A stretch of DNA of 63,504 nucleotides, the filler included, from Reclinomonas americana ATCC 50394 (Eukaryota): assembly GCA_048213135.1 (NCBI GenBank). It is 31 parts of 31 records of this genome, joined end to end, with 100 filler letters (N's around TTAATTAATTAA, not from the genome) between each part and the next. Parts side by side here need not be neighbours in the genome. Positions count along the whole stretch, not along the records: positions 10,391 to 12,364 come from AFZH01025093.1; 30 more parts are not named here. One strand, 5' to 3'. The notes under the pieces are model-generated. The model had not been told where the DNA came from, searched no databases, and saw only the letters and a list, made by a program, of their open reading frames with translations. A program made the position numbers and the translations under genes. This document shows, piece by piece, positions 11,936 to 12,364 of the stretch. The stretch's first letter is position 1. Each line of letters starts with the position of its first letter.

Positions 11936-12011
11936 CGCGGCGATCCGGGCGGTCCCGGGCCTCAGCTCATATCTGACGGCGTTGCGGGTTCGACTCCCGC
12001 CGTCGCGTCCA
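11936..12011 (+). tRNA. Atypical tRNA or tRNA-like RNA, anticodon CAT, encoded CCA
   Basis: Acceptor CGCGGCG/CGTCGCG; D arm CCGGG-CGGT-CCCGG; anticodon arm (GCC)TCAG-CTCATAT-CTGA(c)GGC; T arm GCGGG-TTCGACT-CCCGC; 3' end T-CCA; 76 nt. Confidence 0.82.
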
Positions 12012-12016
12012 CTCTG

Positions 12017-12364
12017 TCAGGAGCGGCTGGTCGCCTGTGCGGCGAGCCGCTTCTCGATCGGCTCCCACCCGCTCTCCAGGATCGCGAACCCGGCGTCGAG
12101 CGTGCTGAGCTGGTCCTCGTCCTCGTTGACGAGAAGCTGCATCTGCAGGACGAAGCGCGCGTAGACGCGGGTCTCGGCAGTGGGCTCCGGCAGCTCGAGC
12201 TCCTCGGCGATGGCGGCGGAGAGCGCGTCCTCGTGACGCAGCCACATCTTCGCCGCGTAGTCGCGCAGCGCGGGCGTCTCGTTGAGGAAGCGCAGGAAGA
12301 CGCGCGTGACGTCGTTGCCGTGCTCGTCGACGTTCGCCGTGATCTCCGCGGCGTAGAAATCGTG
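12017..12364 (-). CDS. TetR/AcrR-family regulator, C-terminal part (bacterial)
   Basis: Helical C-terminal region FLRFLNETPALRDYAAKMWLRHEDALSAAIAEEL...LDAGFAILESGW resembles actinobacterial TetR proteins; the HTH would be off-contig. Confidence 0.65.
   Translation of the reverse strand, partial: HDFYAAEITANVDEHGNDVTRVFLRFLNETPALRDYAAKMWLRHEDALSAAIAEELELPEPTAETRVYARFVLQMQLLVNEDEDQLSTLDAGFAILESGWEPIEKRLAAQATSRS

Follow-up and report, generated by a model that had tools for sequence, protein, structure and literature searches.

The window, meaning the whole stretch of 63,504 nucleotides analysed here (filler included), is made up of 31 contigs of about 1.9-2.0 kb each, joined by the linker N44-TTAATTAATTAA-N44. 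ARAGORN calls a single gene in the whole window, a tRNA-Met(cat), which is the compact tRNA-like gene that heads Table 1. Its true genomic context is one contig alone (10391-12364, 66% G+C). As the window consists of short joined contigs, the context of the gene was taken from related genomes.

Table 1. Features of the compact gene and of the contig that carries it, in window positions.
Feature	Positions	Strand	Details	Basis
Compact tRNA-like gene	11936..12011	+	73 nt plus encoded CCA; anticodon CAU	ARAGORN, fold, conservation, covariation
Acceptor 5' strand	11936..11942	+	CGCGGCG; 7 bp with 12001-12007	sequence, fold
Linker	11943..11944	+	A8, U9; without U8	sequence
D arm	11945..11958	+	CCGGG/CCCGG, 5 bp; 4-nt loop CGGU, GG kept	fold
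Anticodon arm	11959..11980	+	7-bp stem, C11977 bulged on 3' side; loop CUCAUAU	ARAGORN, fold
Variable region	11981..11983	+	GUU, 3 nt	fold, alignment
T arm	11984..12000	+	GCGGG-UUCGACU-CCCGC	fold
Discriminator and 3' end	12008..12011	+	U73 (12008), encoded CCA (12009-12011)	sequence
-10-like box	11921..11926	+	TAACGT (TANNNT), last T at -10	upstream comparison
CAT	11933..11935	+	directly before mature 5' end	upstream comparison
Attachment core	11979..12011	+	about 26-33 nt, repeated at far end of integrated elements elsewhere	3'-half-only copies
Membrane-protein ORF	10879..11913	-	upstream, divergent; without family match; start codon uncertain	
TetR-type regulator, C-terminal part	12017..12364	-	downstream, convergent; ORF cut by contig end	weak TetR_C_14 match

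The acceptor stem is formed by the pairs C1:G72, G2:C71, C3:G70, G4:C69, G5-U68, C6:G67 and G7:C66. The D stem (11945-11949/11954-11958) reaches 6 bp if U9-G24 is counted. The anticodon stem (11959-11965/11973-11980) closes a 7-nt loop at 11966-11972, in which CAU occupies 11968-11970, and the stem pairs adjoining this loop are G:C, A:U and C:G. The general features of tRNA are present: a 7-bp acceptor stem, a 5-bp T stem, a UUCGA T-loop, GG in the D-loop, an anticodon loop of 7 nt that has U33 and a purine at position 37, and a terminal NCCA. An earlier note on this DNA had described a cloverleaf with a 7-bp acceptor stem and a 5-bp T arm with a TTCGACT loop, together with A8, a D stem of 5-6 bp with a CGGT loop, an anticodon stem with a bulged C and a 3-nt variable region; sequence and fold bear out each of these. 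Its reading of C1:G72, U73, the CAU anticodon and the encoded CCA agrees with the sequence and with ARAGORN. With a minimum free energy of -36.2 kcal/mol, the single-sequence fold has a z-score of -1.41, and shuffling this G+C-rich DNA gave an equally good fold in 13 of 200 cases. As such a fold is no better than chance at this composition, proof must be comparative.

Upstream of the gene, conservation is concentrated in two short elements. Among the matches listed, a TANNNT motif has its last base at -9, -10 or -11 in 86 of the 106 distinct sequences upstream of the gene, against at most 9 of 106 (mostly 1-2) at any single other upstream position. The CAT before the mature 5' end is kept at C-3 in 95, at A-2 in 104 and at T-1 in 104 of these 106 sequences. 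The -35-like TGGCCA (11898-11903) is weakly conserved at best. A scan for E. coli-type -35/-10 promoters returned no site and left TAACGT uncalled; a scan for E. coli-type terminators was likewise empty. Of the promoter proposed in the earlier note, the -10 box therefore stands and the -35 element finds little backing. We infer a -10-only promoter, the usual kind in actinobacteria, which would start transcription at A-2 and give a leader of 2 nt, whose last base, U-1, precedes the processing site.

The neighbouring genes are not shared between loci. Among the matches listed, homologues of the upstream membrane protein occur at 8 of 111 other loci and TetR-type homologues of the downstream ORF at 7 of 111, the full-length forms with TetR_N; a DUF3800 gene lies beside the tRNA gene at none of the 111. 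Clustering of 123 flanking ORFs from the loci listed gave 80 clusters, the biggest with 9 members, and by Pfam these ORFs are unrelated (WYL/HTH regulators, GntR, DUF6716, kinases, Mur ligases and others). Across the flanks of the loci listed, no conserved neighbour of the kind that the earlier note had proposed to look for was found, and neighbours change by lineage. A Pfam search of the flanks found no linked toxin, nuclease or regulator gene. An aminoacyl-lipid synthase domain was considered as a lead to a partner and dropped, as it lies near the gene in 2 genomes only.

Conservation, covariation and integration in Microbacterium

The exact 38-nt D and anticodon arms occur in 23 species records, of which 22 are titled Microbacterium and one is an Actinomycetota MAG. 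All 76 nt equal those of the window in 21 of these 23 species, and the sequence straight after CCA is unrelated between species. ARAGORN calls the gene in 22 of the 23 records. A BLAST search of 401 evenly drawn family genomes gave 10 near-full-length matches of 77-100% identity, which retain CAU and carry compensatory changes. At least 111 loci were obtained with a degenerate pattern covering the T arm and the acceptor 3' strand; those listed comprise 106 whole genes (79 distinct sequences) and 5 loci with the 3' half alone.

Homologues were aligned as 62 forms of 73 nt (61 distinct), consisting of the window gene, 58 of 60 selected pattern loci and 3 BLAST matches; further forms, of 69-75 nt, were excluded against alignment artefacts. 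The cloverleaf is paired in 98.6% of 1464 cells across the 62 homologues, compared with 43-53% in a control in which partners were slid by 1-3 columns. Nine of the 24 pairs change on both sides (6/7 in the anticodon stem, 2/5 in the D stem, 1/5 in the T stem), and none of 500 shuffled alignments reached the observed covariation values. The compensatory changes among homologues that the earlier note had suggested checking are thus present. RNAalifold, run on the alignment, arrives at the same structure unprompted.

All seven acceptor pairs are 100% paired in the 61 distinct homologues, with pair 5:68 occurring as GU in 55, AU in 4 and GC in 2. The D stem is also 100% paired across the alignment, and pair 52:64 of the T stem is GC in 58 sequences and AU in 3. 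C1:G72 is paired, and U73, G2-C71 and C3-G70 are invariant, in 61/61 distinct homologues; invariance of the T arm and acceptor 3' strand is partly by construction, because the fetching pattern fixed much there, and the D arm, anticodon arm and acceptor 5' strand were left free. U33, C34, A35, U36 and A37 are invariant in 62/62 sequences, position 38 varies, and column 8 is mostly A, otherwise G or U. U73 and C74 are retained, and many homologues, though not all, encode the CCA.

A covariance model made from the 62-row alignment was run on 151 evenly drawn genomes of the genus of our reference genome, M. phyllosphaerae (G001, identified via locus L009). Best matches at E <= 1e-12 (71-104 bits) were found in 124 of these 151 genomes, for which completeness is not given, with one strong copy per genome; 4 others had weak matches only (33-40 bits) and 23 had no match at E <= 0.001. 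The compact gene is near-universal in Microbacterium. Its identity across 21 of 23 species, its covariation and its presence in 124/151 genomes all favour the earlier note's view of a non-canonical tRNA-like gene that has not simply decayed.

Partial copies reveal a further property of the locus. Among the matches listed, five loci (including L117, L137, L147 and L167) consist of no more than the final 26-33 nt of the gene. In M. paraoxydans, a tyrosine integrase gene comes immediately downstream of the whole gene (L161), and a 3' repeat (L147) that adjoins a Peptidase_M78 (ImmA/IrrE-type) gene lies about 13 kb away on the same contig. Gene and repeat are about 3 kb apart in Microbacterium sp. 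NPDC087589 (L166, L167), again with Peptidase_M78, and an integrase fragment lies downstream at L123. This arrangement indicates that the 3' half of the gene is an attachment site for tyrosine-integrase elements. Integration there accounts for the variable downstream flank, and the gene marks a hot spot for genomic islands. A phage origin of the gene was rejected on null searches: blastn gave no match among 50,697 phage records, and viral contigs held no exact match of the 3'-half pattern.

An attachment site might persist without any RNA function, as a dead tRNA kept for integration or simply drifting, and some copies are indeed degenerate or truncated (L239, L242, L153). We strongly disfavour this explanation, given that compensatory changes fall in the D and anticodon stems, outside the attachment core, that the promoter is conserved, and that the gene is single-copy and retained in 124/151 genomes.

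Relatives across the Microbacteriaceae

In 151 family-level genomes, the covariance model gave 4 strong matches and many at 40-53 bits. Of 26 intermediate loci that were read, 12 combine the C1:G72...U73 acceptor end with a normal-sized D loop (11 with CAU, one with GCA); the other 14 are 13 canonical CAU tRNAs and one rearranged copy of a canonical gene. We refer to relatives with the same acceptor end and a normal D loop as the long form. A 5'-half pattern gave 43 matches, 28 of them long-form genes and 15 chance matches inside genes of other phyla. Long forms were found in Frondihabitans, Okibacterium, Agromyces, Cryobacterium, Leifsonia, Microterricola, Conyzicola, Glaciihabitans, Gryllotalpicola, Mycetocola and Herbiconiux, as well as in family-level MAGs, and relatives span at least 11 Microbacteriaceae genera besides Microbacterium.

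The 28 long forms comprise 26 complete genes with CAU, a degenerate copy (L239) and a truncated one (L242), and all 27 that have an anticodon loop carry CAU. Most are preceded by ...AT, and the sequences read as having an A13-A22 mismatch and G15; their invariance in the 5' half is partly by construction, because the search pattern fixed that half. Many also have a 31:39 mismatch. This alone is not exotic, because 4-bp anticodon stems are common in bacterial elongator tRNAMet, where they account for 27.3% of genes (11,356/41,644) in the available part of a 2026 survey (PMC13092985).

The lineage also includes members that depart from CAU. Three genes among the matches listed are sisters with GCA: two VKM strains have L163 and L172, and G070 has L215. 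Their acceptor and T arm are as in the CAU forms, and their identity to canonical tRNA-Cys is 76%. Both VKM-strain genomes tested also hold canonical tRNA-Cys, and a search of five genomes found no CAU form in the three with the GCA form (G550, G551, G070). Five Microbacterium species have a 6-nt loop, GUCAUA (5/79 distinct sequences among the matches listed); this form appears to be maintained, because two of its loci (L104 and L193) differ by a compensatory stem change. Finally, four Agromyces-type members among the matches listed have the compact body without CAU, two with perfect stems closing 5-6-nt pyrimidine-rich loops and two partly broken. An Agromyces genome has the long CAU form or the loop-less form but not the two together, and they occupy different loci. 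DUF2469 and UPF0102 genes flank the loop-less form at L141 and L143, the two loci with both flanks, and at L153 the UPF0102 gene alone was found.

On these comparisons, there is a Microbacteriaceae-wide lineage marked by C1:G72, G2:C71, C3:G70 and U73, usually with CAU. In Microbacterium and a few neighbouring genera, its body has been remodelled to a compact core with a 4-nt D loop, no U8, a broken 7-bp anticodon stem and a 3-nt variable region. The sequence evidence as a whole indicates a selected, structured, family-wide extra tRNA gene with its own predicted promoter, and not a relic.

Identity signals and possible roles

The genome of M. phyllosphaerae contains 45 canonical tRNAs according to the general tRNA model, with all amino acids covered, and the compact gene is absent from these 45 matches at E <= 0.01. 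ARAGORN types them as a complete single-copy set with three CAU genes, all A73. The initiator (L042) is classical, with C1 opposite A72 and three G:C pairs. A second gene (L034) resembles tRNAIle(GAU), its U12-A23, C29-G41, A38 and A73 fit the Ile set, and it is probably the Ile2 gene; the third appears to be of the elongator Met type, the Met and Ile2 labels being our own reading. Full-length relatives of this third gene, at 75-83% identity, occur in at least 13 of 101 class-level genomes, and a wider tally of 60/101, which carries no weight here, counts partial matches and five unpublished genomes. As genes of the fMet, Met and Ile2 types are already separate in this genome, the compact gene is a fourth CAU tRNA, in line with the earlier note, which had set it apart from all three of these canonical, A73-bearing kinds. 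In five genomes of other genera with relatives, the two canonical elongator-type CAU genes are likewise retained. We rejected the idea that the compact form descends from one particular canonical tRNA, as its identity to the 45 nowhere exceeds 65%, a background value.

Bacteria decode AUA by means of a lysidine-modified CAU tRNA. With its CAU anticodon and A37, the compact gene could accordingly be a second tRNA-Ile2, in which TilS would turn C34 into lysidine for the reading of AUA. This is very unlikely: of the Ile determinants in the available account it has only A35, U36 and A37, without A73, C4-G69 or U12-A23 and with a variable position 38, and the canonical gene with U12-A23, C29-G41, A38 and A73 is already in the genome.

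In each of five genomes searched for MetRS and PF01409, there was one full-length MetRS and one PF01409 match, of PheS size. Because there is one match of each per genome, a second MetRS and a PylRS-like enzyme are absent from 5/5 genomes, and a dedicated synthetase was rejected. In Rfam, neither RF00005 nor clan CL00001 matched in the window at gathering score. The best clan member at loose thresholds was tRNA-Sec, at 30.3 bits against a cut-off of 47. The earlier note had named a match to a described family as refuting its view, and at gathering score no such match was obtained. The tRNA-Sec match and an architecture like that of M. alvus tRNAPyl (available part of PMC7609411) might suggest a dedicated recoding pair, in which the gene would supply the tRNA and, as with Sec or Pyl, a synthetase or factor of its own would serve it. 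We consider this extremely improbable in view of the score below cut-off, the lack of UCA, CUA and a long variable arm, the single PheS-type match and single full MetRS in 5/5 genomes, and the failure to find a conserved neighbour at the loci listed.

The identity elements of the gene point in two directions. According to the available part of PMC9976931, bacterial Cys identity comprises U73, G2-C71, C3-G70, core contacts and GCA, and bacterial Met identity comprises A73, U4-A69 and CAU, with G2-C71 and C3-G70 added in the initiator. The gene thus combines an acceptor end of Cys type with a Met anticodon, as U73, G2:C71 and C3:G70 form the Cys set and CAU is that of Met. This Cys acceptor set lies beyond the scope of the earlier note, as do the near-universal presence in the genus, the family relatives, the GCA sisters and the integration site. 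Both signals can act in other settings: E. coli MetRS charges a tRNAVal that bears CAU no less well than native tRNAMet, and on minihelices U73 alone confers Cys identity (same source, available part). In an engineered E. coli initiator, CysRS charging required GCA and U73 together, RNAs without CAU were uncharged by MetRS, and a C1:G72 variant failed to initiate (PMC11822699, available part).

The earlier note had suggested as possible roles a mis-charged AUG/AUA reader, a non-ribosomal aminoacyl donor, or a nuclease-resistant or decoy tRNA. The most likely reading, which we adopt tentatively, is that the gene encodes a Met-charged auxiliary or specialised adaptor. From the -10 promoter, transcription would begin some 2 nt upstream of the mature 5' end; the leader would be trimmed off, and CCA would be used as encoded or added. 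Through its U33-CAU-A37 loop, the RNA would be recognised as a substrate by the one MetRS in the cell, an enzyme whose dominant determinant is the anticodon. Because this conserved loop suits MetRS, methionine is the amino acid that the RNA most likely carries. E. coli MetRS probably tolerates a change of A73 to U well, at little cost. The product would be an elongator-type adaptor, an auxiliary or specialised Met-tRNA beside the canonical elongator, delivering Met to the ribosome or to another acceptor. It would not be an initiator, because the 1:72 pair is closed and the anticodon stem has no G:C triplet.

In support of methionine, CAU, U33 and A37 remain invariant in 62/62 homologues while the surrounding stem covaries. 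The same invariant loop argues for decoding, together with the precedents of M. alvus tRNAPyl and mammalian mt-tRNASer(UCN), whose compact cores are functional on ribosomes (PMC7609411, available part). Against methionine stands the discriminator, which is U73 and not the A73 of bacterial Met identity (PMC9976931, available part).

CysRS is a serious rival to MetRS, because the acceptor end is the Cys set and sister genes carry GCA. The RNA may thus be a cysteine acceptor, charged by CysRS via its acceptor end and serving either as an off-ribosome Cys donor or as a reader that places Cys at AUG. The sufficiency of U73 on minihelices (PMC9976931, available part) would fit, as would the sisters' shared acceptor and T arm and their 76% identity to canonical tRNA-Cys. 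Likewise, the GCA and CAU forms do not co-occur in G550, G551 and G070 (five genomes searched), the long-form relatives have the A13-A22 mismatch and G15, and the anticodon-less Agromyces members keep the acceptor, D and T parts only. However, bacterial CysRS also needs G34, C35 and A36 (PMC9976931, available part), and the engineered initiator required both GCA and U73 (PMC11822699, available part). CAU is a strong handle for MetRS, Cys inserted at AUG codons would do harm, and CAU is invariant yet needless for an off-ribosome Cys carrier. On balance, we regard cysteine acceptance as unlikely.

The two signals could also have been combined, in a Cys-type body re-aimed at the Met codon and charged with Cys or with both Cys and Met, or in an off-ribosome carrier of Cys or Met. 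We give this a slim chance. If true, the former would be a natural, promoter-controlled device for Met-to-Cys substitution; in an off-ribosome carrier, the tRNAPyl-like compact core would have evolved to separate the gene from routine translation.

Decoding is not clearly required, because the 6-nt-loop form persists and Agromyces-type members lack CAU. It is further opposed by redundancy with the canonical elongator, as AUG needs no second decoder, and by anticodon arms that are irregular in every lineage (bulge, 6-nt loop, 31:39 mismatch, CAU loss). Such arms, together with redundancy against a complete canonical tRNA set and the gene's own predicted promoter, would suit a regulatory or decoy RNA, tRNA-like in form but never charged, that binds a tRNA-binding protein or senses something. 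Candidates for the bound protein would be MetRS, a modification enzyme, a nuclease or toxin, RNase P or the CCA enzyme. This role seems to us improbable. The acceptor stem is paired in every cell, U73 and C74 persist, CCA is often encoded, the canonical elbow elements are present (GG in the D-loop, UUCGA in the T-loop), and no linked toxin, nuclease or regulator gene was found in the flanks.

The usual bacterial requirement is for three CAU tRNAs, namely the initiator, the elongator Met and Ile2. The actinobacterial family Microbacteriaceae keeps a fourth, with mixed Cys and Met signals, and Microbacterium has rebuilt it to a core otherwise known from tRNAPyl and mitochondrial tRNASer. If charged and used, whether as the Met adaptor that we favour or otherwise, it would provide a natural test of competition between anticodon and acceptor signals, show how far a tRNA core compacts in a free-living bacterium, and test the part of extra tRNAs in regulated mistranslation or off-ribosome reactions. 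It may also serve as a ready-made orthogonal scaffold. As standard models miss the gene, tRNA counts for Microbacterium may be one short.

Comparison with known tRNA systems

Searches of the full-text literature found no description of the gene; genes of this kind may be listed under 'tRNAMet' in the supplements of PMC13092985. In common with bacterial elongator tRNAMet, the gene has CAU, U33, A37 and a closed 1:72 pair. It differs from the elongator, as given in the available account, in having U73 and not A73, G4:C69 and not U4-A69, and C1 and not G1, as well as in its compact core and in being additional to the canonical elongator gene. Unlike initiator tRNAfMet, it has neither an unpaired 1:72 position nor three G:C pairs by the anticodon loop. 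With tRNAIle2, which has A73, C4-G69, U12-A23 and A38 (PMC9976931, available part), it contrasts in its U73, G4:C69, G12:C and U38.

The gene shares U73, G2-C71 and C3-G70 with tRNACys and has sister genes with GCA, but its own anticodon is CAU and not GCA. The selC* tRNACys provide a parallel, in the available account, for bodies of Cys identity that are able to carry other anticodons; in contrast to these, the gene has neither a Sec-like 8/4 or 9/3 arm nor a long variable arm. Extra atypical tRNAs beside a complete canonical set are presumably also represented by the cell-wall tRNAGly of S. aureus and the tRNA-Other of B. cereus. The former has, we take it, weakened T-stem pairs, and the compact gene has instead a G:C-rich T stem. 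In contrast to these off-ribosome tRNAs, no Fem-type or other transferase is linked here.

The earlier note had likened the D arm to that of tRNA-Sec and the anticodon stem and variable region to those of tRNA-Pyl, and both likenesses, within the available accounts, are real as architecture. For tRNASec, the likeness is limited to a 6-bp-capable D stem with a 4-nt loop: UCA, the long variable arm and the 8/5 acceptor/T helix are absent, and the score is below the RF01852 cut-off. For M. alvus-type tRNAPyl, it extends to an elongated anticodon stem with one unpaired base on the 3' side, a 4-nt D loop, a 3-nt variable region and a compact core (PMC7609411, available part). The gene nevertheless differs from tRNAPyl as there described in having CAU and not CUA, U73 and C1:G72 and not G73 and G1:C72, and two linker bases where tRNAPyl has none, and in retaining GG and the T-loop consensus. 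It is also bacterial and confined to the Microbacteriaceae, with no PylRS-type gene in 5/5 genomes. The shared compact-core features are thus a likeness of build and no membership.

Mammalian mt-tRNASer(UCN) likewise combines, in the available account, a small D loop, an extended anticodon stem and a 3-nt variable region with retained G18, G19 and T-loop consensus, but it is organellar, has another anticodon and identity, and has a single linker base. Because the defining features of each of these families fail, we file the gene under no named family. Its build most resembles that of M. alvus-type tRNAPyl and mammalian mt-tRNASer(UCN), and its signals lie between those of tRNAMet and tRNACys.

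Integrated elements and apparently rearranged copies at the gene

The compact CAU tRNA-like gene of Microbacterium marks the edges of integrated elements in two genomes. On one contig of M. paraoxydans, a whole gene (L161) and a 3'-half-only copy (L147) bound an element of approximately 13 kb, and in Microbacterium sp. NPDC087589 the loci L166 and L167 bound one of approximately 3 kb. In both cases, the gene itself forms one boundary and a repeat of its final 26–33 nt the other. A tyrosine integrase is encoded at one end of one of the two elements, and a Peptidase_M78 gene lies at the other end of both.

Altered copies are present elsewhere. Cryobacterium lactosi contains a second, degenerate gene copy (L239/L249), the copy of Leifsonia sp. 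YAF41 (L242) breaks off after the anticodon, and in genome G063 the 5' part of a canonical CAU tRNA (L212) has been replaced. All three resemble remnants of rearrangements affecting these genes.

Surroundings of the gene and make-up of the assembly

Upstream sequence comparison indicates that the inverted repeat near the gene (see table) is kept in many close relatives; some others carry a different palindrome at the same site. The repeat could be an operator or, alternatively, form a hairpin in the divergent transcript. The contig also encodes a DUF3800-family protein; at another locus (L098), the tRNA-like gene is instead followed immediately downstream by a DUF3800 gene. A further locus, L106, comes from a record with the title Planococcus sp.; it has a form of the gene typical of Microbacterium, and a WYL regulator is encoded upstream. 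The name and content of this record seem mismatched.

The window (1–63504) chains 31 contigs of approximately 1.9–2.0 kb by descending length. Their G+C content varies between 52 and 66%, and GA/CT or GT microsatellites are found at the ends of many contigs, which points to a mixed assembly in which the Microbacterium-like contig could be a guest. Two pairs of contigs have near-identical terminal bases and may be duplicate or allelic.

Positions of features in the window
Feature	Position	Strand	Remark
Inverted repeat CCAGG-N7-CCTGG	11884-11900		Lies over weak -35 region
DUF3800-family ORF	10391-10805	(-)	Cut by contig end
Linkers N44-TTAATTAATTAA-N44	1981-2080, 4062-4161, onward every ~2 kb		Between contigs
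First contig pair	12465-14436 and 51440-53374		First and last 15 bases nearly identical
Second contig pair	49405-51339 and 57540-59466		Near-identical 15 bases at both ends

Related tRNA genes and loop-less members

In M. phyllosphaerae (genome G001), the two CAU tRNAs of elongator type (L034, L040) each have an apparent G1-U72 wobble pair. In L040, three G:C pairs adjoin the anticodon loop, as in initiators. The two VKM strains with the GCA-anticodon sister genes L163 and L172 (G550, G551) each possess three tRNA-Cys-like genes: besides the canonical gene and the C1:G72 form, there is a third with positions 6–65 matching at 88%.

The loop-less Agromyces-type members (L141, L143, L153, L197) have pyrimidine-rich loops, such as CUUCCU and UUCUU. 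DUF2469 and UPF0102 genes flank L141 and L143; for L153, UPF0102 was the only neighbour of this pair found, and L197 has too little flanking sequence to judge this setting. It is conceivable that these loops are complementary to purine-rich ribosome-binding sites.
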